Positions 47,818 to 63,588 are shown, counted from the first letter of the stretch. The stretch is DNA of 64,000 nt from Parcubacteria group bacterium (GCA_016188775.1 JACPHC010000007.1:28097-92096), one strand, 5' to 3'. Translations and numbers: made by a program. The notes: generated from the sequence alone by a model not told the origin.

Positions 47818-48531
47818 TTAAAGCATATTACCTTTTTCCGCAATTTCTTGAAAGAGTTTATAAACTTCTTTTAGCTGGGTTTTTAATGAATCTATGGCTA
47901 TTTTTATTTCTGGCAATTTTTTATTTGAAAGATTTTTTTCAGCGTCACTATTTTCAATTGAGTTTTTCAATGCAATCACCTGATTTTTGATGGAAGCGAT
48001 TTTAGTGTTCGCGCTATTAAGAATTATTTCCAAGCTCGTTACGTCTTTTCCGTTATTTTTAAGCTCCGAGATTTTATTTTTAATTTTTTCGTTTCTAGTT
48101 TCAGCGTTATCGATAATGTTTTTTTCAAATTTTTCAATTAAAGGAAGCAATTGCGATTTTCTTGTTTGTGGAATATTTTTCCGATACTTTTTTAATTCTC
48201 CGGATATTTTTTTTAGATCTTCTTCTGATTTAACCGATTCGATTTTAATAGCGAGCGGCCTTGCGAGTATCTCATTAATTTGATTAAGCTGCTCTTTTCG
48301 ATTTTCAAAGATTTGTTTTTCAATATCTGGCAATTTTTTTATGGAGTTTTTTTCTTTTTCTTGTTTTAGCCTGCTGAAATTTTTTCTTTTTTCACGAAAT
48401 TTATCAAAAACGTCTTGAAAAAAGAGCCGCGCTTTAATTTCTGGTTTTTTAGCTGACGCGGAAACGGTGGATATTCCGATTATTATTAAAATCAAGACCG
48501 TAATTATTATGAATTTTTTTAAATTTTTCAT
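47818..48531 (-). CDS. secreted coiled-coil protein (hypothetical)
   Basis: Signal/anchor sequence; heptad-rich region; 237 aa. Confidence 0.4.
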   Translation of the reverse strand: MKNLKKFIIITVLILIIIGISTVSASAKKPEIKARLFFQDVFDKFREKRKNFSRLKQEKEKNSIKKLPDIEKQIFENRKEQLNQINEILARPLAIKIESVKSEEDLKKISGELKKYRKNIPQTRKSQLLPLIEKFEKNIIDNAETRNEKIKNKISELKNNGKDVTSLEIILNSANTKIASIKNQVIALKNSIENSDAEKNLSNKKLPEIKIAIDSLKTQLKEVYKLFQEIAEKGNML

Positions 48532-48554
48532 AATTTTTTACTTATTTATCAAAA

Positions 48555-49079
48555 TTAAAATTCTGATAATGCTAGATCAATTTCTTGCATAGCCGCTTCT
48601 TTTGAGAAAAAATCGTCTAAATCTGAATCAAAATTGTTTATTTTTTTTGATTCCGATTGAATCATGGCAAGTTCAAAAACATCCGTTTTTTGAGTCCTGA
48701 AATTAAAAACTGTCAAAGCCAAAAGAATTATAAGCGCGATTCCGGTTGGAAAAAAAATTAGTCGATTGGAGAGGATAGATCTAAATGATTTTGAAAATTT
48801 TTGAAGAGAGAACTTAAAAAGATAACGAATATCTTTTTTGTTTGTGACATTTTCTGATGATAAAGAGATGGAGGCGAGGATTTCGGATAAAAGTTGTTTC
48901 GGCGGAGCGATGTTATCTCTTTGTTTTTTAATCAGCCGCACAATTTCAAAATTTTCTTTGAGATAATCTTTGTCGTCCGGGAAAATTCTCAAAATTTCCG
49001 GAATGGTTTTCCCTTTTTCAATCAATCCAAAAGCTTTATTTAATATTTTTTCTTTTTTTTCTTGTTCGAATTGATTCAT
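48555..49079 (-). CDS. putative membrane anti-sigma factor
   Basis: Overlaps the stop of the upstream ECF sigma factor gene by 4 nt; single transmembrane helix with a cytoplasmic N-domain. Confidence 0.4.
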   Translation of the reverse strand: MNQFEQEKKEKILNKAFGLIEKGKTIPEILRIFPDDKDYLKENFEIVRLIKKQRDNIAPPKQLLSEILASISLSSENVTNKKDIRYLFKFSLQKFSKSFRSILSNRLIFFPTGIALIILLALTVFNFRTQKTDVFELAMIQSESKKINNFDSDLDDFFSKEAAMQEIDLALSEF

Positions 49080-49645
49080 ATTAATTTTTTATTTTTCAAA
49101 TATTGGCGAATTGTTTTAAGCGCCCGGCATTGAATTTGCCTGACTGTTTCTTCTTTTTTCCCCAAAATTCCGGCGATTTCTTTATTAGTCAAATCATTAA
49201 TGAATTTTAAAATAATAACCGTTTGCTGTTCTTCTTTCAAAAATTGGATTGCCTGATAAATTATTTTTTGGTCCTCTTTTTCTTTTAATGATTCTTCTAA
49301 TGTCTGACGAGGCGTTTGAAGTATGTCTTGGTTGTTCGTGAGGATTTCTTTTTTCTTTCGCCAATAATCTATTAAAGTGTTTCTTGCTACCGTAAAAAAA
49401 TAGGCAAGCGGCGTTTTATTTTTTTCTTGGAATCTACCGATGGATTTATAAACTTTTATAAAAACATCCTGCGTTAAATCTTCAGTCACGGTTTTATTTT
49501 TTAATCTGAAATAGATATAGCGAAAAACCGGCGTGAAATAGAGACGATATAGATTATCGAAAGCCGTTTTATCGCCTATTTTCGCCATCATCATTAAATT
49601 TTTCGGATCCTCGGTAATTTCTTCTTTAAAAAAACTAATTTTCAT
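49076..49645 (-). CDS. ECF-type RNA polymerase sigma-70 factor
   Basis: Region 2 DLTQDVFIKVYKSIGRF; region 4 HTH LTNKEIAGILGKKEETVRQI. Confidence 0.8.
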   Translation of the reverse strand: MKISFFKEEITEDPKNLMMMAKIGDKTAFDNLYRLYFTPVFRYIYFRLKNKTVTEDLTQDVFIKVYKSIGRFQEKNKTPLAYFFTVARNTLIDYWRKKKEILTNNQDILQTPRQTLEESLKEKEDQKIIYQAIQFLKEEQQTVIILKFINDLTNKEIAGILGKKEETVRQIQCRALKTIRQYLKNKKLI

Positions 49646-49689
49646 GGAAATATAACGAATAAAGTTTCAATACGTGACAGCTAAATCGG

Positions 49690-51300
49690 CTAATTGGATT
49701 CGGATTTTTTCATTATTTTATAAACCGCGAAAAGAATTAAAGAAGCGATAATGACAGCGCCGGCGCCCAAAAGCGTTTTTAAATTTTCTTTTTGAATTAT
49801 TCCAGAGATACTTGCCGCGATTTGAGACTGAATGGGACTGTTTATTTCTGATTTTAAATCGGCAAGATTTATCGGCGCCGGAGATGATTTTTGAATTTGT
49901 TTTTCTAAAATTACCTTATTAACCGGCATTTTAACGCTGTTTTTATTTTCCGGTTCTTCGGCTGAATTAAAAATATTTTTCCCGCCGGGCGTCGAATTTT
50001 CCGTCCAGCTGAAAGTCCCGTCGGTTTTTCGTCCGGCTGAAAATCCTTCCAGGGCTTTGTCGTAGGCGATTTTATCGGCTATTTCGCCATTGGGATAAAT
50101 AAGATCAATTTCGCCGCCTTTATTATTTAGGGCTAATTTAGTCGTTGGTCGGGATAAAATAAGATAGCCTTTGCCTGAAATAAAAGTTTCTTCGTGAAAA
50201 ATAAAAGCTTTTGAACCGTCCGGCCCGTCGTCTAATTTCCATTGGCTTAAATTTATCAGCCGATTGTTATCATTAAAAATTTCTATCCATTCGGCCTCAA
50301 TGTCTTTGCCGATAGGCGATGGCATAAATTCGTTAATAAAAATGCCCGTTGGCAATATTTGGACGTTTAGCTGATCGGTTTTTGCGGCAACGCCGTCCGA
50401 GATGATTAAAGCGGCAATATAATCGCCTTCATATTTATAATTATGCTCGATTTTTATGCCTTCGCCGGTTTGGCCGTCTCCAAAATTCCATTTATAAGTC
50501 AGTTGAGAATTATTTGGATTTGAGGAATTTGAACCGTCAAAAATAACCGTTTGGCCGGCTTTAGCTTGAACATCTTTTCCGGCATCAGCGGTAAAAGATT
50601 CGGGCGAATTAATCGATTGCGTCTCGGGTGTTGGCAAAGAAGTTTGATTTGAAGAAGAAGTTTGAGTCGTTGTTGCATTGATTGAATTATCAGTTTGAAT
50701 TGTTTGAATCGTTAAAATAGAATTTTGCGATCTGGGAGTGCCGATAATTGGATTTCCAAGCGCGTCTTTTCCGTTAATGGTTATCTGATTATTTGTTTGC
50801 CACGATCCATCAGTTGCTTTTTCCATTGAAGCTTTTAAATCATTCTTTCCGGCTGGCCAGACGGACAAAGCGTCGATTTCATCAATAATATTTCCAGCGG
50901 CGTCTTTTAAAACAAGACGTTCTCCGGCATTGGCCAGCCCGTTTCCGTCGCCAAATGATCCAGAAACATCGGCCTTAATATCGGAAATCGTGCTGTCATC
51001 GGTGCGTTCAATTAAATAATAATTATTAGGAGAAATATTTCCGACCAAAGAAATAATTTTTGTATCTCCGCCGGCCTCGTAAAGAACCCAACCTTCTAAA
51101 TTTATCGTCTCGGAAGTCTTATTGAAAAGTTCAATCCATTCGTCCGAAAAGCTCGCCTTTGTTCCCATCCAGGCGACTTCATTTATAATGACGTCGCCGG
51201 TCGCGGTTCCGTAAGAAATTTTTGGGAAAAAAATAAAATAAAAAGAGATAAAAAATAAACCGGCGCCAGATAGTATAATTTTTAGCGATTTTCTTTTCAT
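49690..51300 (-). CDS. secreted surface protein with two lamin-tail (LTD) domains and a PKD domain, C-terminal transmembrane anchor
   Basis: Two VIINEVAW...EWIELFN LTD patterns; PKD WNFGDG...Y..G.Y. The start is chosen at MKRKSLKIIL (signal peptide); the listed ORF extends to 51381. Confidence 0.6.
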   Translation of the reverse strand: MKRKSLKIILSGAGLFFISFYFIFFPKISYGTATGDVIINEVAWMGTKASFSDEWIELFNKTSETINLEGWVLYEAGGDTKIISLVGNISPNNYYLIERTDDSTISDIKADVSGSFGDGNGLANAGERLVLKDAAGNIIDEIDALSVWPAGKNDLKASMEKATDGSWQTNNQITINGKDALGNPIIGTPRSQNSILTIQTIQTDNSINATTTQTSSSNQTSLPTPETQSINSPESFTADAGKDVQAKAGQTVIFDGSNSSNPNNSQLTYKWNFGDGQTGEGIKIEHNYKYEGDYIAALIISDGVAAKTDQLNVQILPTGIFINEFMPSPIGKDIEAEWIEIFNDNNRLINLSQWKLDDGPDGSKAFIFHEETFISGKGYLILSRPTTKLALNNKGGEIDLIYPNGEIADKIAYDKALEGFSAGRKTDGTFSWTENSTPGGKNIFNSAEEPENKNSVKMPVNKVILEKQIQKSSPAPINLADLKSEINSPIQSQIAASISGIIQKENLKTLLGAGAVIIASLILFAVYKIMKKSESN

Positions 51301-51392
51301 ACGCGTCAATATAAATATCAAACTAAATTTAGTCAAGACAAATTTAACAAACAGAAAATAAAGCGTTAGATTAATTTTCATTATTCATCGGA

Positions 51393-51461
51393 AGGTTTCA
51401 AAATCAATTATAGCATTTTCTTTCATACTACGTAGTATGAAAGAAAATGCTATAATTGATT
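51393..51461. repeat. 60-bp perfect palindromic element with an outer GGTTTCAAAATCAA arm (left terminal-inverted-repeat-like copy)
   Basis: aatcaattatagcattttctttcatactacgtagtatgaaagaaaatgctataattgatt. An inverted copy lies at 63336..63390 and a degenerate copy at 62697..62730. Confidence 0.65.
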
Positions 51462-51699
51462 TTTTTATCTTCTTAAAAGATTTTCTAATTATTTAAAGAG
51501 TTGATTTTTTTCTCATGCTTTTTTAAAAATAGCCTAGTTTGTTGACTTATTGATTTATATATTTATACTGAATTTTAATGAATCCCGCACGGAGCCGCGA
51601 TCGCTTCTTCTTGGGATACGCATAAATATTATAAATTAGAAATTATAAAAATTAATACAAGCGGATTGCGTCTTTTGATCGCGATTTGCTTCGTACGGG

Positions 51700-52320
51700 A
51701 TGAACCAGTTTTCCGAAAAAAATCTTAAATTAGCTATTGCTCTCCATCGTTTAACGACCTTTTTCCCCGAAGAAGAGATTCTGAAAAACCAGCTTCAAGA
51801 AAAAGCCAATGAAATATTTACTAATTCTTATTTGTTGGAAGAAGATGGCTTGAATCTGCCTGACGATAAGAGAATTGATGTTAAATATAATTTATTGGCC
51901 AGCCTTCGTTTAATGAACGGTTTTTTGCTTTTAGCCAAAAATTTGGATTTCCCCAAAAAAGAAAGCCTGGAAATATTGGAAAATGAATATCAGAAAATTT
52001 TCGAACAATTAAAGTATAAATTTGAAGAAAAAATTAACCATTTTGAAAGAGAAATTGATAGCGTTGAAAAAGAAAAGGAGCCGATTTTATCCCAGCTTTC
52101 TTCCCGACAATTAAGAATTATCAAAGAGATTAAGAAAAACAAAGAAATGCGAGTGGGGGATTTGGCCCATACTTTTGGAAACCGGTTTTCTCCCAAAACA
52201 TTTCAGCGGGAACTTCAAGAATTAATGGCTAGAGGATTAATTGAAAGAACCGGAGATTATAAAAACACTTATTATGTTTTATCCCGAGGGCTTGAAAAAG
52301 TTATAAACCCCGTTCATTAA
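51700..52320 (+). CDS. DNA-binding protein with a C-terminal winged helix-turn-helix (possible regulator or replication-initiator-like protein)
   Basis: C-terminal LSSRQLRIIKEIKKNKEMRVGDLAHTFG...ELMARGLIERTGDYKNTYYVL wHTH pattern, followed directly by a repeat array. Confidence 0.45.
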   Translation: MNQFSEKNLKLAIALHRLTTFFPEEEILKNQLQEKANEIFTNSYLLEEDGLNLPDDKRIDVKYNLLASLRLMNGFLLLAKNLDFPKKESLEILENEYQKIFEQLKYKFEEKINHFEREIDSVEKEKEPILSQLSSRQLRIIKEIKKNKEMRVGDLAHTFGNRFSPKTFQRELQELMARGLIERTGDYKNTYYVLSRGLEKVINPVH

Positions 52321-52331
52321 TCAGTAATTTT

Positions 52332-52503
52332 ACGGGACAATTCGGGACATTAATCGGACAATTTATCGGACAAAATATTGTGAAAGAAAATATTTATATT
52401 TGTCCGATAAAATTTATCGCTTTACTCAGATTTTAATTCAAAAATTTTTCAATTTTGTATATTAACAATTTATCAGACAATTTAAGACATTTGTCTGATA
52501 AAT
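52332..52503. promoter_or_regulatory. iteron/operator-like array: at least seven copies of ATC(G/A)GACAA in direct and inverted orientation, including four direct repeats phased at 10-12 bp
   Basis: Direct copies at 52332, 52342, 52353, 52365 and 52471; inverted copies at 52400 and 52491. They form two palindromes, TTATCGGACAA-N27-TTGTCCGATAA and TTATCAGACAA-N11-TTGTCTGATAA. Confidence 0.55.
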
Positions 52504-52554
52504 CGAGTTAAACTTTAATAATATACTTCATTACTCCTAAGCAAAACATTTTAC

Positions 52555-52866
52555 TTGTCGTTGCGAGAAGGTATAAACCGACCCATTTGTCATCGCGAGG
52601 CGATAAAATCGCCGAAGCAATCTTTCAATGGTTATGAACTAAAAGCATTATTATATATACAATATACATACACATTAAAATATAACATTATAAAACTCGT
52701 TTATTACGAAACTTTTGACAGTCCGGAGGTAGCTATTCAAAGAAAAAAACAAACTAAAGGCGGTTCCCGTAAAAAGAAAATATATTTAATAAAAAGCATC
52801 AACCCTGAATTTAAAGATTTGAGTGATTCTCTTTGAGATTGCTTCGCCTTCGGCTCGCAATGACAA
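52555..52866 (+). pseudogene. decayed GIY-YIG nuclease gene bracketed by the GTCATYGCGAG / GAAGCAATCT inverted repeats
   Basis: Retains the C-terminal ...KLVYYETFDSPEVAIQRKKQTKGGSRKKKIYLIKSINPEFKDL of small GIY-YIG proteins; the N-terminal GIY/YIG region is shortened and degenerate (LLYIQYT). Inverted repeats lie at 52588..52622 and 52835..52866. Confidence 0.5.
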
Positions 52867-52927
52867 ATTAAAGTAAGATAATGTTCGCTTATCGGAAAAA
52901 TAACATTACAATTAAATGATATTTTCT

Positions 52928-53000
52928 GTCGTCATTGCGAGGCGATGAAATCGCCGAAGCAATCTCTCAATGACAAAGCAAATTCGGCTCGCAATGACAA
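52928..53000. repeat. further copy of the GTCATTGCGAG...GAAGCAATC / CTCGCAATGAC miniature element
   Basis: gtcattgcgaggcgatgaaatcgccgaagcaatctctcaatgacaaagcaaattcggctcgcaatgac. Confidence 0.6.
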
Positions 53001-53586
53001 GGAGTGGCAGAATTGACATTTTTTGAATTTTAAAATAGAGTGTTTTTCGATTATTGTTTGTTCATTGTTTGACATTGAAAAATTTGTTATTATTAGTTTA
53101 TCAGGCTTTAAAAAAAGTTATCCACAGTTGTAGGCTTGCAGTGAAAAATAGAAGTCGCTATAATAATAAAGAAATGAATTTTAGTCGGCATTTTCTACGA
53201 TGATTAAGCCTTTTTGGCTTATTTTGACATTATAAATTTGAAAGCTTTGCCGGATATTGTTAAAATAAAATTAGCTTGCAATTCGCGAGTTATAATTTAT
53301 AAATTGTAATCCGCGAATTGCAAGTCCGGATCCTTGAAAATTAAATATGAAACAGTATGGTTGAGAGATAAAAGTATTATTAGTATTCTTAAATTTTTTT
53401 CTGTTTGTTAGCTTCGTGGTCGATGAAATTGGAAATCAAAAAAAGTCGAATTTTTTTGATTCAATAATTTCAGCTCTCTCTAAAAATTTGACATTATAAA
53501 TTAGAAAAATAAAATTGACAGGCTTAAGAAGATTGTCGGTTTTCTTAGCCTTGAAAAATTAATTAAAATTAAATCAAAATTAAATT

Positions 53587-56500
53587 ATGGAAAGTATATT
53601 AAGTTCCAGAATGAAAAAAGGGATTTCAAAAATCTCTTCAATCGTTCTGACTTTGACTACTACCATTTGGCTGTCGGGCCTTGCTGCCTTGATGCCAGTG
53701 GCCGTAGTTCACGCGGTTCATACTCCCGCCACCGAAAGTTTCACCTTCAAGAAAACGCTTAAATTCGGTTCGCGGGGCACTGATGTAACCGAACTCCAGC
53801 AAATCCTGATTGACGAAGGATTTCTGGATATAGACGAGCCAACTGGATATTATGGAAGTTTAACAAGAACGGCAGTTATGGATTTACAGGAAGAAAATGA
53901 TTTGCCGAGAGTTGGCGTAGTTGGTCCGTTAACTCGCGCGATATTAAATGATGTTCTTGAAGGAGGAACGGCCACTCCGGCTCCGGCTCCAACTCCGACT
54001 CCGACTCCGACCGCGACAGTTCTCGGAGTAAAAGTAGCTTCAGACACTCCGGCAGCCGGACCGGTGGCTAAAAACTCGCAAGATGTTTCAATGACAAAAT
54101 TAGATTTCACCGCGGGTGATTCAGATGTCACTATTTCATCTTTGAAGGTGACTCGAAGCGGTCTTTCCGCCGACTCAGATGTTTCTAACGTCAAATTATG
54201 GTGGAAAGGCGTTCAAATTGGTTCAACTCAAGCTCTTTCAACCACTACTCACACAGCGACCTTTACCGGTCTTAATGTGGTAGTCGCGAAAAACACGACT
54301 GAATCAATTTTGATCAGCGCTACTATAGCGGCTAGCCCGACCGTTGGCGACACTATTGTTCTTGGTATTGCCGCTCAAGGCGATATCACTTCAACGGTAG
54401 CGTTTTCAGGCACTTATCCTTTAAATGGTAATGCTAAAACAACTGCCGGCATTTCCGTCGGTCAGCTCGATGTTGATAAACAAACAACTCCGGCCGCGGC
54501 CACTATTCTTTCCGGCGCTACCGATCAGTCTATTGCGGCTTGGAAATTCGCGGCCAATGCCACTGAAGGATTTAAGGTTCAGAAAGTCAAAATTACCAAT
54601 ACCGGTTCAGCGGTTCCTGCTGATGTTTCTAATTTGAAACTGAAAATCGGCGCTGACGTGGTCAGTCCGACCGTTACCGCTTTAGGAGCGGATCAGACAG
54701 TCACCTTTGATCTTTCCGCCAGTCCGATTGCTATTACCGCCGGCACCAATAAGATTATCACCGCTTACGCTGATGTCGCGGCTGGAATCAATTCCGCCCG
54801 GACCATTATTTTTGAGATTACCAATGTCCAAGATGTGATGGCCACTGGCGATAATTCCGGCGGAGGCGTCACTATTACTCAATCAAGCGGCACCGCTTAT
54901 GTTAAACAGACCGGCGCTACTATGACTATTGGCCAGGGCACTTTAACTGTTGCTTTGGATACGGCGGTTAATCCGTCAAATAAGACTTATGTTAAGGGGA
55001 CCCCGGGCCGTCTTTTTTCCGCCTTTAAATTCTCAGCTGGTTCTACTGAAGGCGCTCGGATAACGGAAATTACCTTGACTCGGGTCGGCTCCGGCACAGC
55101 CACTGACCTTTCTAATATCACTTTGGTCAATAACGCCACTAACGCGGTTATTGCCACTGGCGGCAGTATTACCGGCAGCACGGTTAAATTCGGTCTTAAC
55201 ACTATTGGCTATGACGCCACTGGTTTGTTTGATGTGCCTGTTTCCGGCAATGTGACAGTTTTAGTTAAAGCTGACATTGCTTCAGGCGCGACTGCCACCG
55301 CGGTTGATAGTTTGGAGATTGCCGCTAATACCGATATTAAAGCTGATGGTCTGACTTCTAAATATGATATTGCCTCAGGCAGTATTACTGATAGCACTGG
55401 TTCGGGCAGTGAGGCCGACCATACCATTGGCGCTAAAGGCGACTTAACCGCCACTTTGTCAGCCAATGCTCCAGCCGCGGCTAATATCGTTAAAGGCGCG
55501 ACTGGTCTTAAATACGCCACCTTTACTCTAACGGCTGGCGATGGCGAAGATGTGGTTGTTTCCGGCTTGACTTTGACTCTTCAGAAATCAACTGGCACAG
55601 CCGCGGGTTCAGGCGACTTTACTAATGTTAAAGTTGTTAGAAGCGATAATAACGTTCAATACGGTTCAACTGTGGCTTCTCCGACCAGTTCCGCTTCATT
55701 CTCCGGTAATTTAGTGATTCCGGCCGGCACAGCCATTGATCTTCAAGTCTACTCCGATGTCCCGACTGGTTCCGCTTCTACCACCAGCCGCGTCACTATA
55801 AACGCCGCGGGCGATTTGACCTTGACCGGTTCTTCATCCAGCGCTTCAATTACCGCTGGCGGCACATACGCGATTAACGCTAACACAATGACTGTTGCTT
55901 CTGGCACGATTGTTCACGCTATGTTGGCTACTCCTCCGGCTTCCAGTTACGTAATCAATGCCGCCGGAGTAACTCTGGCTAAATTATCCTTGACTGCTGG
56001 CACGGCCGAAGATGTTAAAGTGACTACTATCAAGCTGACGGCCGCGACTTCCGGCGATACCGGATTTGTCGGCGCCAGTACTGCTCAGACTGATTTTGCC
56101 GATCTTAAGCTGGTTGACGATTCAGCCGGTACTAATATCTCTATCAGTCCGTCTGTCTTTACCGACGGCACTCCCGACACTATTACTTACACCGGTCTTG
56201 AATACACAGTGCCTAAAGGCATTCAGAAGATTATTCGAGTCGTTGGCACTGTTAAAGCCTCAACCGGAGTCTATATTATCGGTGTTAAAGCGAATGGCGA
56301 TGTTGTTGGTTCAGGTCTAACTTCCGGCGCTTCTATCAGCTCAACCGGCGGCACAGTTGCTTCTAAGAATATTACTATGACAACTGCCGGCTCTCTGGCT
56401 GTGGCTGATGGCGGCTCTCCGGTTAAAACTATTGTCGCTGTTGGAACTAGCGGCAAAACAGGCGTTGACTTTGCCAGAGTTAAGCTGACCGCCACTAATG

Positions 56501-57399
56501 AGGATATTAAGATTTCCAAGATTGTTATTACCAGATCTGGCGGCGCTAATGGAGATTTCTCCGCTGTTAAACTCTATGACACCACTACCAGTTCTACGGG
56601 TACGCAGATTGGTTCAACTATAAATTTTGTCGGCACTGCCACTACTGTTGATTTTAACTTCAATCCCGGATCTGAATTCGTTGTTACTAAAGACACGGAT
56701 AAATATATTACCGTCAGAGCCGATCTTAACGGCACTTCTACCGGTGCGGCTTCCAATGATCAGCCAATCTTGTCGCTTGCCGCTACCACTGACATCACTG
56801 CCACTGGTGTTGCTTCCGGATCGTCTTCAATCACTATTACCGGCACAGTCACCGGCAACGCTCAAGCCTTAGTCAAGGCTAAGCCGATTATTGAAAAAGT
56901 GGCCTTGTCAACTCTTGATATTACTCCGGGCGTTATGACTGTGTTTAAGCTCAAGATTACGGCTGATGGTGGCGATGTTAAATTCTTAAGTTCGACTGCT
57001 TCCAATAATATGAAATTTACCATCGCGCAGGCTGGAGGCACGACAACAACGAGAAATATCAAGATTGTCTTATCAACCGCTCCGGGCACTGTTTATGATC
57101 AAAACGCTAACAGCGCTACAACTGGAGCGGGCAACATTGATTTCACAACCGCTGGCACGGCCAACTTCGGATTTGAAGAAAATGAATTGACTGTTTTCTC
57201 CGGTACGCCGGTTACTCTTGATGTTCAGGCTGACTTGACCGATTACGCCACAGCCGGTGAATCATTCAGGCTTGATATAAATAATGCCAACACTGATCTT
57301 AGTTACAATGACGGAAGCGCGACAACCTCTGATATCAATTTGACAAGTTTCCTTGGTTATGGATTGCCAATTACCGGCGATACTGTGACTAAGAAATAA
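53587..57399 (+). CDS. giant (1270-aa) surface protein: signal/anchor, peptidoglycan-binding domain, TP-rich linker, at least 10 tandem Ig-like repeats of about 95 aa
   Basis: PG_binding_1 pattern (TELQQILIDEGFL...GYYGSLTRTAVMDLQ), linker PAPAPTPTPTPT, then repeated ...LTATLSANAPAAANIVKGATGLKYATFTLTAG...V..L.L type units. GC content is higher than the flanks. Confidence 0.65.
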   Translation: MESILSSRMKKGISKISSIVLTLTTTIWLSGLAALMPVAVVHAVHTPATESFTFKKTLKFGSRGTDVTELQQILIDEGFLDIDEPTGYYGSLTRTAVMDLQEENDLPRVGVVGPLTRAILNDVLEGGTATPAPAPTPTPTPTATVLGVKVASDTPAAGPVAKNSQDVSMTKLDFTAGDSDVTISSLKVTRSGLSADSDVSNVKLWWKGVQIGSTQALSTTTHTATFTGLNVVVAKNTTESILISATIAASPTVGDTIVLGIAAQGDITSTVAFSGTYPLNGNAKTTAGISVGQLDVDKQTTPAAATILSGATDQSIAAWKFAANATEGFKVQKVKITNTGSAVPADVSNLKLKIGADVVSPTVTALGADQTVTFDLSASPIAITAGTNKIITAYADVAAGINSARTIIFEITNVQDVMATGDNSGGGVTITQSSGTAYVKQTGATMTIGQGTLTVALDTAVNPSNKTYVKGTPGRLFSAFKFSAGSTEGARITEITLTRVGSGTATDLSNITLVNNATNAVIATGGSITGSTVKFGLNTIGYDATGLFDVPVSGNVTVLVKADIASGATATAVDSLEIAANTDIKADGLTSKYDIASGSITDSTGSGSEADHTIGAKGDLTATLSANAPAAANIVKGATGLKYATFTLTAGDGEDVVVSGLTLTLQKSTGTAAGSGDFTNVKVVRSDNNVQYGSTVASPTSSASFSGNLVIPAGTAIDLQVYSDVPTGSASTTSRVTINAAGDLTLTGSSSSASITAGGTYAINANTMTVASGTIVHAMLATPPASSYVINAAGVTLAKLSLTAGTAEDVKVTTIKLTAATSGDTGFVGASTAQTDFADLKLVDDSAGTNISISPSVFTDGTPDTITYTGLEYTVPKGIQKIIRVVGTVKASTGVYIIGVKANGDVVGSGLTSGASISSTGGTVASKNITMTTAGSLAVADGGSPVKTIVAVGTSGKTGVDFARVKLTATNEDIKISKIVITRSGGANGDFSAVKLYDTTTSSTGTQIGSTINFVGTATTVDFNFNPGSEFVVTKDTDKYITVRADLNGTSTGAASNDQPILSLAATTDITATGVASGSSSITITGTVTGNAQALVKAKPIIEKVALSTLDITPGVMTVFKLKITADGGDVKFLSSTASNNMKFTIAQAGGTTTTRNIKIVLSTAPGTVYDQNANSATTGAGNIDFTTAGTANFGFEENELTVFSGTPVTLDVQADLTDYATAGESFRLDINNANTDLSYNDGSATTSDINLTSFLGYGLPITGDTVTKK

Positions 57400-57454
57400 C
57401 TTGCTTGACTTAAAAATCTAGTTTCTTTGCCTAGTTTTTAAGCCTGATTTCTTC

Positions 57455-57522
57455 CCTTGATGGTTTAAACCTCAAGGGAGGATAATCAAAAGCCCTTGTT
57501 TTAACAAGGGCTTTTGATTATC
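57455..57522 (+). terminator. tandem rho-independent terminator hairpins after the giant gene
   Basis: ccttga..tcaagg stem, then aaaagcccttgtt/aacaagggctttt as a perfect 13-bp stem. Confidence 0.55.
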
Positions 57523-57607
57523 CAGATTTAAATTATTTTAAATTTTAATTCTAAATTCACGCTTCTACGGACGATCGTCGCTAAATGTGTAAATTTTTTA
57601 GAGTTTA

Positions 57608-57637
57608 TTGACTTTAAACTTTCTACTTTGCTACAAT
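57608..57637 (+). promoter_or_regulatory. candidate sigma70 promoter for hicB (TTGACT-18-TACAAT)
   Basis: Read directly from the sequence; 9 nt upstream of the hicB ATG. Confidence 0.35.
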
Positions 57638-57645
57638 TAATTTAA

Positions 57646-57864
57646 ATGAAAAAAACATCTTTAACTAACATAGTTTGGAAAGAAGGTAAATATTATGTTG
57701 CCCAATGTCTTAACGTTGACGTGTCAAGTTTTGGCAGAACAAAAGCCGAAGCTTTAAAAAATCTTGAAGAAGCGCTTGAACTTTATTTTGAAGATTTTTC
57801 CATTTCTAAAATTATTCGCGTAGAAAAGCCGGTTTTTGTTGAATTGTCTTTTTCAAATGCCTAA
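57646..57864 (+). CDS. hicB: HicB-family antitoxin
   Basis: GKYYVAQCLNVDVSSFGRTKAEALKNLEEALELYFE matches the HicB/UPF0150 N-domain pattern. Confidence 0.6.
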   Translation: MKKTSLTNIVWKEGKYYVAQCLNVDVSSFGRTKAEALKNLEEALELYFEDFSISKIIRVEKPVFVELSFSNA

Positions 57865-57967
57865 GTTTTATTCTTCTCGATACATCATTAAAGTCCTGGA
57901 AAAACAGGGCTTTATTTTTATTATGTATCCGCCGAATACCCCATCTCCCATAAGGAGACGGGATTGA
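57857..57967 (+). pseudogene. hicA: truncated hicA toxin gene (only about 22 native codons) interrupted by the GC-hairpin repeat element
   Basis: MPKFYSSRYIIKVLEKQGFIFI matches the HicA N-terminus (..KVLEK.GF..). The frame then runs into repeat sequence (MYPPNTPSPIRRRD*). Its start overlaps the hicB stop. Confidence 0.5.
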
Positions 57968-58080
57968 GGCGGCGAGCGAAGCGAGTCTGAATCGAGCGAG
58001 GCAAGTTGGTCGAGCCGAGCGAGAACTTTTCATAACAAAGCATTATCACAATGCCGCGCCGCAAGCGGCGCGGATGCTTT
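57917..58080 (-). repeat. full-length copy D of the GC-hairpin repeat family (reverse orientation), inserted into hicA
   Basis: Its reverse complement matches 19515..19695 except for a 24-nt indel. The listed ORF 57812..58033 (MKSSRSA...) is its translation. Confidence 0.6.
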
Positions 58081-58091
58081 ATTTCTCAAAC

Positions 58092-60257
58092 ATGATAAAA
58101 AAAAATATATTAAAGAAAATTATTCGCTTGGGCGTGTATTTAATAATTTTTACCCCTCTTTTAGTTTTTTCTGCCACTATTTATCCTGCTTTGACCGGAA
58201 AAGTTGTTATTTTCCGTATTTTAATTGAAATTTTATTTATTTTTTGGCTTTTCTTGATTTTTTTTTATAAAGAATATCGGCCCAATTTAAAATCTCCGCT
58301 TTTTTTGTCAATTTTTATATTTATATCAGTTTCTTTTATCTCCGCTTTTTTAGGAATTAATCCTTGGCAAAGTTTTTTCAGCACTGCCGACCGTTTAATG
58401 GGTATTTTCACTTGGCTGCATTTTTTTGGTCTTTTTTTGATAATTTCAATTTTCTCTAAAGAGGAGCGGGAAAAATTTTTAAAACTTACCTTATTCGTCA
58501 GTTTTCTCGTTAGCCTTTCCGCGATTTATCAAAGAATTAATCCCGATTTTCTTTCTTTTGGCAGCAGCGAACGTCTGGCCGGCACTATTGAAAACCCGGG
58601 TTTTTTTGCCAGTTATTTAATTCCGCATATTTTTTTGGCCCTGTATTTTGTTTTTCAGAATTATTCCGCATCCAATATCTCAAATTTTATATTTTACATT
58701 TTTTATTCCCAATATTTTTGGCTTCTTCTTCTGGAATCTTTGATGTTGTTTTTTACCGGCACTCGGGGCGCGATTTTAGCTTTTGGATTTACTTTGATTT
58801 TATTAGTTTTTCTTTTTAGTTTTACGAGGCTAAGCCTCGTAAAAAGCGATTTTAAAAATTCGTTTCCGAAGTTTTTTAGACGTCCGGCATCTTTAATTTT
58901 GGCAGTTTTAATATTAATTTTTGCTCTAGGTTTTCTTTTTCGCCATCAACCGTTTTTTTATCAGATTCCATTTTTGAAACGTTTCGCCGGACTTTCTTTT
59001 AACGATCCGACAATTCAGACGAGATTTTTAACTTGGAAAATAGCTTTTAAGGGATGGCAAGAACGGCCATTTTTTGGCTGGGGTCCGGAAAATTTTAATA
59101 TTCCATTTAATAAATATTATGATCCGTCTTTTTTGAAATACGGTTTTCAAGAAACATGGTTTGACCGGGCGCATAATATCATTTTTGATAATTTAATAGC
59201 CGCCGGTCTTTTAGGTCTTATTAGTTATTTGGCTATTTTTTTCAGCGCTTTTTATTTGATTTTTAAATCAAAGGAATTTATAACTCAAAAATTAGTTTTA
59301 ATCGCCGGACTTCTCGCCTATTTTATTCAAAATCTTTTTATTTTTGATACCTTTGTCGGTTTATTGCCTTTATTTTTAGTTTTTGGTTTTATCAATACTC
59401 AATCCGTTTCCCGGCCTTTATTGGAATTATCCGGCAAAACCGGAAAAATTTTAAAATTATTTATTTTTTTTGTCGTCGGAGCATTAATTTTTACAGCCTT
59501 AGTTGTAAATTTTTCCACTTTTAAAAACGCTGTTAGTTTAAGAAACGCCATTTTAGCTGAATTGAAGAATAATTTTAATCTTTCCAGAAATATAACTAAA
59601 AAAAATTTAAGTTCTTTTTATCCTTATAAAGAAGAAACTGGCTTGCAATTTATGGCATTTATAAAACAATCTTTTGATAAAGGGTTAGATAGAGGAGAAG
59701 CGATTCAAGATATAAAATTAGCGGAAGATTTTTTTTCTTTAATCTCCTCCCGCCACAAAAAAAATTCGTTTTTATATTTCCAATATGGCAATTTTTTAAA
59801 TTCAGCCGCTAATTACGATAAAGCTTATCTCGCTAAAACCGATGAAGTGTTTAATAAAGCTTTGGAATTAAGCCCTCGGCGTCAGCAAATTCATCATTCT
59901 CTTGGAGTTAATAAAATAATGGAAGGAGAATATGAAGAGGCGATTTGGATATTTAAAAAATCCGCTTCTTTTTATAACGCGGCTCCCGATCCCCATTTTT
60001 ATTTAGGTCTTGCTTATTTTGCGATGAAAGACGAGAAAAACGGATTTGTTGAAATTGAGAAAGCCTTGGAATTCGGCTACACTGCGAAAACGCCGGAAGA
60101 AGGATTATATTTAGGGGATATTTATGAAAAAAATATTAATCTTCAAAAAGCCCTTTTTTTCTACGAATCGGCTTTATCGCTGGATCCGCAAAACAAAAAA
60201 ATTCAAGCCAAAGTTGAAACGATTAAAAATCAATTAAATAATGAAACTTCCAACTGA
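58092..60257 (+). CDS. polytopic membrane protein with an O-antigen-ligase/polymerase-like (Wzy_C) domain and C-terminal TPR repeats
   Basis: At least 10 transmembrane helices; WGPENF...FDRAHNIIFD (Wzy_C AHN motif); a C-terminal TPR region of about 250 aa. The start is moved to MIKKNIL because the listed start lies inside the repeat. Confidence 0.6.
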   Translation: MIKKNILKKIIRLGVYLIIFTPLLVFSATIYPALTGKVVIFRILIEILFIFWLFLIFFYKEYRPNLKSPLFLSIFIFISVSFISAFLGINPWQSFFSTADRLMGIFTWLHFFGLFLIISIFSKEEREKFLKLTLFVSFLVSLSAIYQRINPDFLSFGSSERLAGTIENPGFFASYLIPHIFLALYFVFQNYSASNISNFIFYIFYSQYFWLLLLESLMLFFTGTRGAILAFGFTLILLVFLFSFTRLSLVKSDFKNSFPKFFRRPASLILAVLILIFALGFLFRHQPFFYQIPFLKRFAGLSFNDPTIQTRFLTWKIAFKGWQERPFFGWGPENFNIPFNKYYDPSFLKYGFQETWFDRAHNIIFDNLIAAGLLGLISYLAIFFSAFYLIFKSKEFITQKLVLIAGLLAYFIQNLFIFDTFVGLLPLFLVFGFINTQSVSRPLLELSGKTGKILKLFIFFVVGALIFTALVVNFSTFKNAVSLRNAILAELKNNFNLSRNITKKNLSSFYPYKEETGLQFMAFIKQSFDKGLDRGEAIQDIKLAEDFFSLISSRHKKNSFLYFQYGNFLNSAANYDKAYLAKTDEVFNKALELSPRRQQIHHSLGVNKIMEGEYEEAIWIFKKSASFYNAAPDPHFYLGLAYFAMKDEKNGFVEIEKALEFGYTAKTPEEGLYLGDIYEKNINLQKALFFYESALSLDPQNKKIQAKVETIKNQLNNETSN

Positions 60258-62427
60258 AAAAAAACTTATTCAAATTTCAGTCATTCTTATTTTTTTATCA
60301 TTATTCTTGCCATCATTTCGTTTTAAAAGTCAGCTTTTTATTCCTTTTAAGTCTTTGCTTTTTCAATTTTTTGTTAGTTTATTATTTTTGATTTATTTTT
60401 ATCTGACGCTTAATAATTCCAAATTTCGTCCTAAATTTTCCTGGTTAAACTTAGCTGTTATTTTATTTTTAATCTCTTCTTTAATTTCTTTATTTTTTGG
60501 GGTTAATCCGGAGAAAAGTTTCTTCGGAACTCTTGAAAGAATGGGGGGATTTCTCTCTCTTTTTTATTATGGCGTTCTCTTTTTTATTTTAAGTCATTTA
60601 TTTAAAGGAGAATACCAAGAAAAATGGCGAAAATTTATAAATTGGAGTTTAATCGCCGGCTTTCTCGCTGCTTTTTGGGGAATAGGACAATGGCTAAAAA
60701 TCTCTTTTTTATTTTTTGAAGGAGAACGGGTAAGCGGGCCGATCGGCAATCCGATTTTTTTCGCTGCTTATCTTCTTTTTATGGTATTTTTTAGTTTATT
60801 ATTTTTTTTGGAATCAAAAACAAAACAAGCAAAAATTTTATACAGCTCTGTTTTGATGATTTCTGTCTTCGCGATCATTCTTTCCGGAAGTCGGGCAGTC
60901 TCCCTCAGTCTTATTTTAGGGTTAATTTTTTTCAGCCTTTTTTACGCTTTTTTAACTCAAAATAAAAAAATAAAAAAAATTTCCGTCGCCGTCGCGATTT
61001 TTATTATTTTGATATTCGGTTCAATTTTATTTTTTAAAAATCAGCCTTTTATTCAAAATAATTTTTATCTTTCTCGATTAGCTCTCGGTTCTTTAAAAGA
61101 TTTTCGGAATCGGTATCTCGCTTGGCAGATCAGTTGGGAAGCTTTTAAAGAGCGGCCCGTTTTTGGCTGGGGCGAGGAAAATTTTAAAATCGCTTTTAAC
61201 AAATATTTTAGTCCAGCCTATTTTGACACGCCAACAGCGGAAGTTTTTTTTGATCGCGCCCATAATGTTATTTTTGATCGCTTAACAAGCATTGGAATCG
61301 TTGGCCTTTTGAGCTATCTTTTTATTTTTCTCGCTATTTATTTGACAGTTTTTCAATTAAAAAAAGGAAAAAAAATAAACGAAGGCCAATTTGTCATTTT
61401 TCTTGTTTTGCCCGCGGCGTATTTTTTGCAGAATTTTTTCGCTTTTGACACCTTCCCGACCTATCTTAAGTTTTTCTTTTTTTTAGCGTATTTAAATTCG
61501 TTTGTTTTAGGTGGCGAGCCCAAAAATAAATTTGAGTTTTTTAAAAAAATAAATTTTCCGTCTCAATATCGTCTTTTTATTTTTATTCCGGTTTCTTTTT
61601 TGATATTTTTCGCGATTTATAAATTTAATATTAAGCCGCTAATTTCAATTTTTTATTATGTTAAGTCTCAAAACGTCCAATTATTGCCAGAAGCGTTGAA
61701 ATACTACAAAAAATCCGTTTCTTTTAATACCTTCGCCAACGCTGACATTCATGATTATTTTTCAAGGCGGTTTTTTCAAAATGTCGCCAATGATTTTATA
61801 AAAACAAAAGAAGAGAAACAAAAATATCTTTTAATGGCCGAGGAGGCGATGCGAAAAGCCGCGATTCTAGACCCCCAAAATTCTGATTTTTGGCTGAAAT
61901 TAGCCGGAATTCAAATAATGCTTGTAGAAAATGACATTAAAGAAGGACTGGAAAGAGCGGAAATTTCTTTAAAAAAAGTTTTGGAATTAAGTCCAAATAA
62001 TTTGCCCGCCCTTCTTGATCTAGCGGAGGTTAAAAGACTTCAGGACCGGCCGGAAATATTTTTAGAGCTGGCAAAAAAGGGCGTAGCATTAAATTCGAAA
62101 TCATCCGTGGCGCATTGGTATTTAGCCGCGGCTTATATCGCGAATAAAAATGAAATTGACGCGCAAAAAGAATTTGATATCGCTTACGGTTCAGGCTACA
62201 AAGAGGATATTCGAGATTTAAGATATCTGGCGGGCATTTATCGAAAATTAAATCAATGGCAGAAAGTCGCGAAATTTTACGAAGAAATTATAAAAAAAGA
62301 TTCAACAAACGCGGATTTTTATCTGCGACTGGCTGAGGCTTATTATAATTTAGGAAAAATCGATCAAGCGGAGAAAATTTTTGAAAAAGCGAAAACGATT
62401 AATCTCGATTTGGAAAAAATAAAATAG
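60241..62427 (+). CDS. tandem paralogue: Wzy_C-like polytopic membrane protein with C-terminal TPR repeats
   Basis: WGEENF...FDRAHNVIFD; same architecture as the upstream gene; 17-nt overlap with it. Confidence 0.6.
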   Translation: MKLPTEKKLIQISVILIFLSLFLPSFRFKSQLFIPFKSLLFQFFVSLLFLIYFYLTLNNSKFRPKFSWLNLAVILFLISSLISLFFGVNPEKSFFGTLERMGGFLSLFYYGVLFFILSHLFKGEYQEKWRKFINWSLIAGFLAAFWGIGQWLKISFLFFEGERVSGPIGNPIFFAAYLLFMVFFSLLFFLESKTKQAKILYSSVLMISVFAIILSGSRAVSLSLILGLIFFSLFYAFLTQNKKIKKISVAVAIFIILIFGSILFFKNQPFIQNNFYLSRLALGSLKDFRNRYLAWQISWEAFKERPVFGWGEENFKIAFNKYFSPAYFDTPTAEVFFDRAHNVIFDRLTSIGIVGLLSYLFIFLAIYLTVFQLKKGKKINEGQFVIFLVLPAAYFLQNFFAFDTFPTYLKFFFFLAYLNSFVLGGEPKNKFEFFKKINFPSQYRLFIFIPVSFLIFFAIYKFNIKPLISIFYYVKSQNVQLLPEALKYYKKSVSFNTFANADIHDYFSRRFFQNVANDFIKTKEEKQKYLLMAEEAMRKAAILDPQNSDFWLKLAGIQIMLVENDIKEGLERAEISLKKVLELSPNNLPALLDLAEVKRLQDRPEIFLELAKKGVALNSKSSVAHWYLAAAYIANKNEIDAQKEFDIAYGSGYKEDIRDLRYLAGIYRKLNQWQKVAKFYEEIIKKDSTNADFYLRLAEAYYNLGKIDQAEKIFEKAKTINLDLEKIK

Positions 62428-62585
62428 TTATCCACATTGACACGATTTTTCAATATGAAATAATTAAAATAGAGCAGATGATTATTTACGATCTTTCAAA
62501 AAATAATGAGCGAGTCGTCATCGCTTGTTAAAATTAAAAAGTTTAAAACTTAAATTTAAAAATTTATGTTTTAAACAAAACCTAG

Positions 62586-62624
62586 ATGGCAGCCAAGAAA
62601 AAGGCCAAGAAGAAAAAGAAGTAA
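62586..62624 (+). other. micro-ORF encoding MAAKKKAKKKKK followed immediately by a strong terminator
   Basis: A 12-codon Lys-rich ORF; the terminator hairpin at 62633..62667 begins 9 nt after its stop. Confidence 0.2.
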
Positions 62625-62632
62625 TTTTATTT

Positions 62633-62667
62633 CAACCTCTCCTAATAATAGGAGAGGTTGATTTTTT
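62633..62667 (+). terminator. rho-independent terminator (aacctctcc/ggagaggtt)
   Basis: 9-bp stem, 8-nt loop, T-tract. Confidence 0.55.
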
Positions 62668-62696
62668 ATTCTTTAAATTATAATTTGACAAAAACT

Positions 62697-62730
62697 TTGA
62701 TACTACTTAGTATTAAAGAAAATGTTAAAA
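62697..62730. repeat. degenerate copy of the 60-bp palindromic element (tttgatactacttagtattaaagaaaatg)
   Basis: Differs from the core tttcatactacgtagtatgaaagaaaatg at 3 positions. It lies about 55 bp upstream of the yerC-like gene. Confidence 0.45.
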
Positions 62731-62782
62731 AATAAAATATAAATTGTATTAAATTAATTTTTTTTAAATATCCTAAATTTAG

Positions 62783-63313
62783 ATGGCTAAATTTTTAAAA
62801 AGGAATCGTTTAACCAAAGAAGAGCAAGAAAAAGCGGTGCTTACTCTTTGCCAGGCCTTGGTTGTTATTAAAGATTTTAATGAGGCGGCAAGTTTACTTG
62901 TTGATCTTTTTTCACGTCAAGAAATGGAAATGATAGCCAAACGTTTAATGATTGCTAAATTTCTTATTCAAGGGAAAAGTTACGATGATATTCGTCAAAA
63001 TCTAAAAGTGAGTCATGCTACTATCGCGAGGGTTAGCTCTTGGCTAGAACAATCCGGCGCGGGGTATCGTTTAGTGATTGAACGGTCAAAAAATTTAAAA
63101 TTATCAGAATTATCAAAAAGCAAGATTTCCAATTGGAGTCAATTGAGACGACGTTATCCTTTATATTTTTGGCCCCAGATTCTTCTTGAAGAAATAGTTC
63201 GTAAAGCGCAAAAAAGAGATCGAGATAAATTACTTAATACCTTAGATGTATTGAAAAAAGCGGGAGAAAAGAATCAACTTTTTAAACAATTAGAAAATCT
63301 TTTAAGAAGATAA
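62783..63313 (+). CDS. TrpR-related YerC/YecD-family DNA-binding protein
   Basis: AKRLMIAKFLIQGKSYDDIRQNLKVSHATIARVS matches the Trp-repressor-like HTH pattern; 176 aa. Confidence 0.5.
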   Translation: MAKFLKRNRLTKEEQEKAVLTLCQALVVIKDFNEAASLLVDLFSRQEMEMIAKRLMIAKFLIQGKSYDDIRQNLKVSHATIARVSSWLEQSGAGYRLVIERSKNLKLSELSKSKISNWSQLRRRYPLYFWPQILLEEIVRKAQKRDRDKLLNTLDVLKKAGEKNQLFKQLENLLRR

Positions 63314-63335
63314 AATTTAATTATATTAATTATTA

Positions 63336-63390
63336 CATTTTCTTTCATACTACGTAGTATGAAAGAAAATTTAATTTTGATTTTGAAACC
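63336..63390. repeat. right (inverted) copy of the 60-bp palindromic element, with the GGTTTCAAAATCAA arm on the outside
   Basis: cattttctttcatactacgtagtatgaaagaaaat plus ttaattttgattttgaaacc. It is the reverse complement of the left copy's outer arm. Confidence 0.65.
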
Positions 63391-63588
63391 CCCTGATGAA
63401 AATGAAAATTTCATCTAACGCCTTATTTTCCGTTTGTTTTTCAAAACAGATTATCTCCATTACAATTTATGATGACAATTCAGCCGGAGTTATTACCTAT
63501 TAATTTGCCTCAGGAGTCCAAAATTGGGTGGCATTATGCATTGATTTGACATTTTATTATCATTTGTTAGTTTTAAATTTATCAAAAT

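Follow-up and report, generated by a model that had tools for sequence, protein, structure and literature searches.

Do two inverted copies of a long palindrome, lying some 12 kb apart on the chromosome of a Parcubacteria group bacterium, mark the ends of a mobile element, or do they belong to a regulatory gene next to one of them? We addressed this question within a stretch of 64,000 nucleotides (GCA_016188775.1, JACPHC010000007.1:28097-92096; hereafter the window). An earlier description made from the DNA alone (the sequence-only reading) had proposed a ~12-kb accessory module at 51393-63390, bounded by the palindromes in the manner of terminal inverted repeats (TIRs) and enclosing, near its right end, a gene for a TrpR/YerC-like regulator, here called yerC. 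We consider it probable that the palindromes are operators of this regulator, that the left copy is a duplicate of the module downstream of yerC, and that the 12 kb in between are ordinary chromosome. The mobile or accessory unit as first stated would be a false lead that it is useful to retire.

Palindromic sites on both sides of a TrpR/YerC-like gene

The 30-nt core of the palindrome, TTTCTTTCATACTACGTAGTATGAAAGAAA, occurs in exact form at 51417-51446 and at 63339-63368 and nowhere else in the window, in agreement with the two places named before; allowing up to 3 mismatches yielded no further copy in the window (0 expected from 100 shuffles). The symmetry differs from the 60-bp perfect palindrome described earlier. 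The left copy, here site X, is a perfect palindrome of 64 bp (51400-51463), and the right copy, site D, is perfectly symmetric over 34 bp only (63337-63370). The sequence GGTTTCAAAATCAA is common to both copies and outermost in each, as the sequence-only reading had it, and the degenerate third copy mentioned there corresponds to ATACTACTTAGTAT at 62700-62713, in the promoter of yerC. This third copy forms part of site U, an imperfect palindrome (CTTTGATACTACTTAGTATTAAAG) at 62695-62718. With U ~75 nt before the yerC ATG and D starting 24 nt past the yerC stop codon, the gene itself (62783-63313, plus strand) is indeed flanked by two palindromes. None of the three sites is assigned a strand. 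The inner motif ATACT-N4-AGTAT occurs 3 times in the 64 kb, where 0.00 occurrences are expected. Each arm of site X moreover contains an extended -10-like box, TGCTATAAT, facing outward, so that the box is present on both strands.

Short-read contigs of the same organism from Logan (L001-L003) reproduce each flank and end inside or beside the palindromes; two of them, L002 and L003, begin inside the 64-bp palindrome, 30 nt short of its end. The perfect 32-nt symmetry between the arms of the left palindrome argues that these two arms are truly in cis. The palindromes also account for the tendency of short-read assemblies from the candidate phyla radiation (CPR) to break beside the yerC-like gene.

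The regulator comprises 176 aa and matches the Pfam family Trp_repressor (PF01371) with 57.0 bits at a cutoff of 27. It consists of an N-terminal TrpR-like domain and a CPR-specific C-terminal domain of four helices with the motif KRRYPLYFWPQ. Profile searches against the PDB returned 3frw, 3g1c (HisR of E. eligens) and 3kor with E-values of 1e-14 to 1e-16. An AlphaFold2 model (predicted local distance difference test score, pLDDT, 76) places residues 12-102 in a TrpR-like fold, followed by the separate four-helix domain. The top Foldseek hits of this model are TrpR-like with target-normalised template-modelling (TM) scores of 0.74-0.86, and include the operator complex 1tro and the tandem-binding complex 1trr. 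Judging from the domain score above the curated threshold and the TrpR-like fold, the protein is a member of the TrpR/YerC family. For the C-terminal domain of ~60 aa (KRRYPLYFWPQILLEE...), Foldseek gave no structural match; the domain is conserved in 14 homologs, with invariant P, Y, W, P and K residues. In a library clustered at 50% identity, the family amounts to 93 clusters at E<=1e-30 and to 1236 at E<=1e-10, the latter including other TrpR-like proteins, and more than 200 family loci are found in JGI metagenomes.

In Bacillus, YerC is identical with HisR, a short repressor that responds to histidine; the HisR motif of Firmicutes reads cacTTTA-N6-TAAAgtg and the TrpR motif TGTACTnGTnnACnAGTACA, with GNACT as the half-site of the TrpR operator (PMC9413887). 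Operators known from the TrpR family are palindromes of ~20 bp, TrpR binds in tandem, and about half of the hisR genes have a site in front of themselves (PMC9413887). The system described here has the Pfam family and the fold in common with HisR and the TrpR of E. coli, as well as ~20-bp palindromes composed of short half-sites (GNACT in TrpR, ATACT here) and a site before the regulator gene of the kind through which these proteins frequently autoregulate. An 8-bp periodicity of half-sites recalls the tandem binding of TrpR seen in 1trr, and the general half-site NNACT resembles GNACT. However, HisR and TrpR have less than 110 aa and lack the additional conserved domain of ~60 aa, ATACT-N4-AGTAT is unlike both published motifs, no his or trp genes lie beside the sites examined here, and a second identical site regularly follows the gene. 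We therefore rejected an identification of the protein as HisR, the functional ortholog of B. subtilis YerC, from which it departs in motif, in the lack of his genes among neighbours and extra-site genes, and in its 176 aa with the added domain. A limited literature search found nothing on a CPR TrpR-like regulator or its palindromes, which is absence of evidence only; a bracket of two operators on a CPR-specific two-domain relative of TrpR appears to be undescribed.

The two-site bracket across the candidate phyla radiation

For comparison, we fetched 86 yerC-like loci, 6 from GTDB genomes (Uhrbacteria, Doudnabacteria, Sungiibacteriota, Saccharibacteria and one labelled Gammaproteobacteria) and 80 from metagenomes, of which 77 were non-identical, giving 78 loci together with the window. 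Nearly all relatives carry the same lineage-specific palindrome on both sides of the yerC-like gene. The density of the motif ATA[CG]T-N2-8-A[CG]TAT is 5.0 per kb within 200 nt upstream of the gene and 4.3 per kb within 200 nt downstream; inside the gene it falls to 0.19 per kb, and over 515 kb of other flanking DNA to 0.037 per kb. This amounts to a more than 100-fold enrichment in the 200 nt on each side. An upstream site is present in 69 of 78 loci and a downstream site in 59 of 74, with both in 56 of 74, and the spacer measures 4 nt in 126 of the 141 sites. The centre of the upstream site precedes the ATG by a median of 43 nt (range 12-166), and that of the downstream site follows the stop codon by a median of 17.5 nt. 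A control that makes no use of the motif agrees with this: the longest exact word common to both 200-nt flanks has a median length of 17 nt, and 53 of 68 loci have a word of 14 nt or more, whereas in control windows 1 kb away the median is 8 nt and words of at least 14 nt appear in 1 of 92. The site consensus, aAAtACTtCaATACT-nnnn-AGTATtGaAGTatTt, contains two ATACT half-sites per arm, 8 bp apart, and palindromy fades ~17 nt from the site centre.

The upstream site also often overlaps a promoter. In the window, the predicted yerC promoter (62685-62713, plus strand; TTGACA-17-TAGTAT, 10 of 12 consensus matches) has as its -10 hexamer the right half-site of U. Across the homologous upstream sites, a match of at least 5/6 to TTGACA stands 16-18 nt upstream of the right half-site in 19 of 67 cases (28%), versus 1.6% of random positions. 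Since the bracket is conserved among CPR loci and the motif is enriched more than 100-fold, the palindromes are most likely the regulator's own operators; enrichment, motif-free control and promoter overlap together provide comparative evidence for a palindromic operator of the PF01371 type at the regulator's own promoter. A palindromic operator linked to the YerC-like protein had been the third alternative of the sequence-only reading, and the conservation of the bracket across CPR supports it in substance.

We also considered whether D could be the promoter of a particular target gene. This was rejected: the 58 genes that follow D represent 65 Pfam families, none of them shared by more than 4 genes, and a D site is also found at 6 of the 10 neighbours in convergent orientation. 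Site D thus belongs to the regulator gene and not to a particular neighbour. The two sites of a locus, moreover, resemble each other down to their spacer. In 48 of 56 loci, U and D have the same 4 nt, either directly oriented (27 loci), inverted (12) or self-complementary (9), as opposed to a spacer identity of 5.6% between loci. Thus, the sites evolve in concert, and their orientation is free, which fits a symmetric recognition plus copying between the sites.

In one clade (L036, L046, L049, L057-L060 and L024; e.g. 6469-6482 in L036), the second site lies within the yerC coding sequence, ~100 nt before the stop codon, where it encodes SILSSIEG. Only ~8 nt separate the upstream site of this clade from the ATG, suggesting that the mRNA is leaderless.

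Based on this arrangement, we propose that dimers of the regulator, presumably responding to a ligand, would recognise ATACT half-sites as ATACT-N4-AGTAT, with a second half-site 8 bp further out in most lineages. Site U, placed over the -10 box of the regulator's own promoter, would then bring about autorepression. Site D, immediately behind the stop codon and ~650 bp away in the window (490-740 bp across loci), would serve as an auxiliary operator. Looping between D and U might plausibly proceed via the family-specific C-terminal helical domain through dimer-dimer contact, and D may help to terminate transcription as an RNA hairpin. At the far end of the 12 kb, the inverted duplicate of the D module would put an operator between the divergent LTD/ECF-sigma (extracytoplasmic function sigma factor) genes and a winged helix-turn-helix (wHTH) gene, so that the regulator might control the LTD and wHTH genes as well.

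Such an architecture has parallels in the lac O1-O2, gal OE-OI and deo operators, in which a promoter operator is accompanied by a second copy hundreds of bp downstream. As in lacO2 and galOI, the second site is sometimes inside coding sequence (the SILSSIEG clade), and here too an extra protein domain could mediate contacts between dimers. In contrast to these systems, looping is proposed here with no detected helical phasing, and the loop would enclose the regulator's own gene and not a regulated operon.

Several points weigh against the assignment of the palindromes as operators. It is built on guilt by association. The palindromes also pass a scan for hairpin plus T-tract terminators, so that a secondary terminator role is possible. 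The identical asymmetric spacer of U and D is not obviously explained by a symmetric dimer and points to copying, by gene conversion or duplication, besides selection. We detected no recognition-helix residue that co-varies with ATACT versus ATAGT half-sites, in a comparison confounded by phylogeny, and the distance between U and D showed no helical phasing (best uncorrected p ~0.065, at 10.6 bp). Moreover, the best promoter-like site of the LTD gene (51336-51308, from a promoter scan) lies ~95 nt from the centre of the palindrome X, and X could be a maintained but idle copy.

The terminator scan raises the question of whether the palindromes act at the RNA level, isolating the yerC unit as insulator hairpins or as intrinsic terminators that work in both directions, with the sequence conservation being incidental or a result of copying. 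All three strong copies score as a hairpin with a T-rich tail, site D on the plus strand and site X on both strands. The arms are often A-rich at their 5' and T-rich at their 3' side, and the positions just past the stop codon and just past the upstream gene would suit terminators. However, ATACT/AGTAT is invariant at the tip of the hairpin across very distant lineages and the outer stem is variable, the opposite of what terminators show. The stems are AT-rich with loops of 0-4 nt, and G:T mismatches are not favoured over A:C (6 vs 8 in upstream sites; 5 vs 2 in downstream sites). Furthermore, the upstream copy would not be fully transcribed, because it overlaps the -35/-10 geometry, and the SILSSIEG clade has its second site within coding sequence. 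We therefore regard an explanation at the RNA level as quite unlikely, although a dual DNA/RNA role is possible.

With operators of the regulator as the favoured interpretation, the locus provides a widespread CPR-specific TrpR-family regulator whose candidate operator can be specified precisely as ATACT-N4-AGTAT plus outer half-sites at 8 bp, in an unusual conserved architecture where two identical sites bracket the regulator's own gene. It would be a testable regulatory element in almost entirely uncultured organisms with very few predicted pairs of transcription factor and operator, and would enable regulon prediction in thousands of CPR genomes, possibly including surface proteins of the LTD type.

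The left copy and the DNA between the repeats

The similarity between the left and right copies extends beyond the palindrome. An inverted repeat of ~182 nt relates 51346-51527 to 63251-63438, with 163 identities in 192 alignment columns (84.9%) and an alignment score of 232, compared with at most 33 in shuffles. The right arm, the D module (63251-63438, plus strand), consists of the last 22 yerC codons, the palindrome and ~68 nt downstream. Its inner 65 nt are the intact 3' end of the yerC-like gene. The left arm, the X module (51346-51527, minus strand), lies between the divergent LTD (minus) and wHTH (plus) genes, and within it 51464-51527 (minus strand) is a pseudogene fragment that corresponds to the yerC 3' end but is interrupted by two in-frame stops: it translates as FKKA*EKNQLFK*LENLLRR*, where the right arm gives LKKAGEKNQLFKQLENLLRR* (asterisks, stops). 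The outer ~60 nt form the non-coding leader upstream of the LTD gene. As its arms hold the yerC 3' end, the palindrome and this leader, the reported TIR is a segmental duplicate of these three parts. Its 'inverted' orientation is defined by the module flanks only, because the palindrome is symmetric to itself.

Within the duplicate, the palindrome has fared differently from its surroundings. The core of site X is identical to site D at 34 of 34 positions and the module flanks at ~82%, a combination with a chance of about 0.001 by our own arithmetic, which argues that the 34-nt core has been maintained by selection or conversion. In one arm of the left copy, a clustered change (TTATAGC vs AATTAA) produced both the perfection over 64 bp and the presence of TGCTATAAT on both strands. 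Such a clustered change perfecting a palindrome on one side is as would be expected of quasipalindrome template switching.

The left copy would thus be another duplicated module like the extra copies of other lineages (see below), but inverted and 11.3 kb away. Two origins fit its anatomy: an inversion with a duplicated breakpoint, or the dispersed, inverted copying of a module of ~182 nt. According to the first, yerC, palindrome and LTD gene were once adjacent and co-directional, and a 12-kb segment was flipped with staggered or duplicated breakpoints at the palindrome, each end being left with one copy of the junction. This would concern only how copy X arose and is compatible with an operator function. 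Each copy does combine a live side with a dead one. Of the yerC 3' end, the right copy keeps an intact version and the left copy a decayed one; the outer segment passes into the LTD leader at the left copy and has no such continuation at the right. The resulting layout L-aPb-M-b'Pa'-R is as expected from a flip with a duplicated breakpoint, and a junction at both ends of the segment, in inverted orientation, is likewise known from inversions explained by the staggered-break model. Long perfect palindromes are fragile sites. The LTD block, moreover, forms a minus-strand islet amid plus-strand genes, and in locus L081 an LTD protein also adjoins yerC.

The composition of the genes speaks weakly against a recent flip. 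Four ordinary genes of the block have coding-strand GC3/TA3 skews (GC and TA skew at third codon positions) of +0.03/+0.17, as compared to +0.03/+0.15 in other plus-strand genes. Minus-strand genes differ (GC3 skew -0.12 to -0.18, TA3 ~0), and the LTD block resembles these. Since the third-position skews of the block genes equal those of other plus-strand genes, a recent flip of either block is not visible, even though the flanks of the repeat have diverged by only 9-18%; the comparison is a weak one with large scatter per gene. In addition, adjacency of yerC and LTD occurs in no outgroup, and the nearest YerC homolog, 59% identical, has different neighbours. Unlike inversions of the staggered-break kind, the segment thus bears neither an outgroup sign nor a strand-skew sign of having been flipped, and we consider an inversion scar possible but rather doubtful.

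Does the enclosed DNA behave as a unit? The ~12 kb might be a non-autonomous element, a composite transposon or a decayed island or plasmid with the palindromes as TIRs, and it is true that inverted repeats of ~182 nt flank it and that it encloses genes of an accessory type (a surface protein, Wzy_C proteins, a GIY-YIG remnant, repeat elements). However, we found no target-site duplication (TSD), neither at the boundaries proposed earlier (51392/51393 and 63390/63391) nor at the true ends of the repeat (51345/51346 and 63438/63439) nor around the left module alone. A Pfam search of open reading frames of at least 50 aa in the block and its flanks revealed no transposase, integrase, relaxase or replication gene, and the absence of a transposase or integrase had indeed been noted before. 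There is no tRNA gene at 51-64 kb, those of the window being confined to 2.8-36.8 kb, and Rfam gave no match at the palindromes or in the 12-kb block apart from a sub-threshold chance hit at 58025-58080. The arm of the repeat includes part of a gene that is resident and vertically inherited, close relatives within other lineages keep synteny around yerC, and in most other genomes examined the same type of palindrome brackets yerC alone.

Composition gives the same picture. A discontinuity in GC skew at the two ends had been suggested as a check, and no boundary is seen in GC3 (GC content at third codon positions) or in third-position skews between the enclosed and other plus-strand genes; genes of low GC3 are not confined to the block (58-63 kb) but also lie beyond it (47.8-49.6 kb). 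IMG/VR contains neither the palindrome nor a member of the YerC-like family. The flanks had been described as housekeeping, which does not hold on the left, where an LTD/PKD surface protein and an ECF sigma factor are encoded. We thus give hardly any credence to a mobile module, and the DNA enclosed by the copies has the look of ordinary chromosome.

Three specific forms of such a unit were rejected on these grounds. For a TIR-bounded element (a miniature inverted-repeat transposable element (MITE), non-autonomous or composite transposon), the arms are not specific to an element, being resident gene fragment plus regulatory site, and there is no TSD, no transposase and no other copy in the window. 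The option of an island or integrated plasmid fails for want of an integrase, replication genes, a nearby tRNA and a compositional deviation, GC3 and skews matching the rest of the window. Against a site-specific invertible DNA switch, no recombinase is encoded in or beside the segment. The palindromes do resemble MITEs, composite transposons and palindromes of the REP/BIME type (repetitive extragenic palindromes and bacterial interspersed mosaic elements) in being short intergenic palindromic or inverted repeats that are sometimes multiplied locally. They differ from all of these in that only 2-4 copies are present, always at or near one specific gene, with no TSD, transposase or REP-associated tyrosine transposase (RAYT), and in a core conserved across CPR classes.

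Extra copies, neighbouring genes and other repeats

Further copies of the site were found in other lineages, intergenic and 0.4-5 kb from yerC (L007, L011, L014 with two, L015, L037, L065 and L081). They have 20-80 nt of flanking sequence in common with the gene-proximal sites, in L014 including the last yerC codons. The genes between the copies are unrelated to each other (an AAA_33 kinase, a DUF3750 protein, a PEP-utiliser protein and a lipase/beta-helix protein), and the extra site of L081 lies just past the gene for a 1223-aa LTD-domain protein. Beside extra copies, L014 (7693-9342) and L065 (7014-9686) carry an OLD-family (AAA_15/AAA_21 plus TOPRIM) nuclease-like defence gene and a gene for an 891-aa beta-helix/lipase-like protein. 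Judging from these genes, the surroundings of yerC that are bracketed by modules tend to contain accessory genes.

Because the sites evolve in concert and in either orientation, and the extra copies bracket variable accessory genes, the modules might be sites of recombination and gene capture or loop anchors of a small chromosomal domain, recognised by the YerC-like protein, with the 12-kb block as one such domain; we hold this to be improbable. In a narrower form, the palindromic modules would be recombination sites comparable to attC or dif that capture accessory genes beside yerC with the YerC-like protein as recognition factor, and the 12-kb block as well as the module-bracketed single genes elsewhere would be captured cassettes. 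Consistent with capture, L011, L014, L015 and L037 have single unrelated genes between near-identical modules beside yerC, the module of L014 repeats the last yerC codons, and U and D agree even in their asymmetric spacer, whether direct (27) or inverted (12). Moreover, the stretch just downstream of yerC is a hot spot of insertions and deletions (indels) in one clade, and a 128-nt direct duplication flanks the yerC unit in L083-L085. However, no recombinase is associated with the sites, and the C-terminal domain has no catalytic-looking residues among its invariant ones (P, Y, W, P, K). Capture of the Campbell type would leave the duplication of both module flanks in the window unexplained, and duplication of a promoter module accounts for the arrays equally well. 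We therefore consider capture by site-specific recombination very improbable.

The duplication in L083-L085 is 94.5% identical between its copies (~5575-5702 and 6609-6735 in L084), flanks the whole palindrome-yerC-palindrome unit, and corresponds to the 5' end of a glycosyltransferase-like gene. It looks like the footprint of an insertion or rearrangement. We also rejected the yerC unit as a cassette that hops on short time scales: relatives at 73-85% DNA identity, among which indels occur just downstream of yerC, keep collinear flanks, and none was found in IMG/VR.

Left of site X, the LTD+PKD surface-protein gene (49690-51300, minus strand; Pfam LTD and PKD) is annotated by NCBI with a product of 536 aa, which places its start at 51300. 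It is the first of a five-gene minus-strand block (LTD/PKD, ECF sigma and three unknowns; 47335-51381) amid plus-strand genes. Its nearest LTD homolog is 48% identical and has a different neighbourhood. The block comprising the LTD gene to the 141-aa gene, GDH and SLT is syntenic in the distant relative L090, whose Logan contig begins with ...GAAGGTATTGAACC... at 74 nt before its LTD gene; this hints at a repeat or operator-like sequence near that LTD gene too.

On the other side of site X, the first gene encodes a 206-aa protein (51700-52320, plus strand), for which the winged-helix assignment made earlier is weak, with sub-threshold hits to HTH_DeoR, MarR_2 and HVO_A0114 only. Of the remaining cargo listed by the sequence-only reading, Pfam confirmed the two genes with Wzy_C and TPR domains, the peptidoglycan-binding domain (PG_binding_1) of the 1270-aa protein and the Trp_repressor domain of the regulator, and the decayed C-terminal half of a GIY-YIG gene was recovered as well. 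The gene for the 1270-aa protein, described as GC-richer, has an ordinary GC3 of 0.43. A hicB/hicA remnant was not borne out, the evidence consisting of a sub-threshold hit to DUF7387.

Further repeats were noticed besides the palindromes. A repeat of 65-150 nt is present in four copies, at 19512-19656 (plus), 57960-58114 (minus), 8629-8688 (plus) and 42873-42923 (minus); the copy at 57960-58114 overlaps both the supposed truncated hicA and the beginning of the first Wzy_C gene. The core of this repeat is a GC-rich hairpin, AAATAAAGCATCCGCGCC[loop]GGCGCGGnATTGTGATAATGCTTTGTTATGA, without a match in Rfam. Since its copies show compensatory changes (CGCGCCGC/GCGGCGCG, CGCGCCACCC/GGGTGGCGCG and CGCGTCACCC/GGATGACGCG), the sequences suggest a structured RNA or a REP-like element. 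Furthermore, hairpin repeats of 42 nt (GTCATTGCGAGGCGAT..ATCGCCGAAGCAATC) occur in at least 5 copies, including 52589-52630, 52931-52972 and the region 23640-23911, and two of them flank the decayed GIY-YIG C-terminal half (~52680-52836; ...LVYYETFDSPEVAIQRKKQTKGGSRKKKIYLIKSINPEF...).

At the scale of the whole window, the GC3 skew of the plus strand remains positive regardless of gene orientation, and the switch in gene orientation near 14 kb is therefore probably not the replication origin. Finally, the iteron-like array that had been reported is present as a dense array at 52327-52520, just downstream of the gene for the 206-aa protein. It consists of direct and inverted repeats of the GGACAAT/ATCGGACAA type (...CGGGACAATTCGGGACATTAATCGGACAATTTATCGGACAA ... 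TTTGTCCGATAAA ... TTATCAGACAATTTAAGACATTTGTCTGATAAATCG) and may be a binding array of the adjacent wHTH-like protein.

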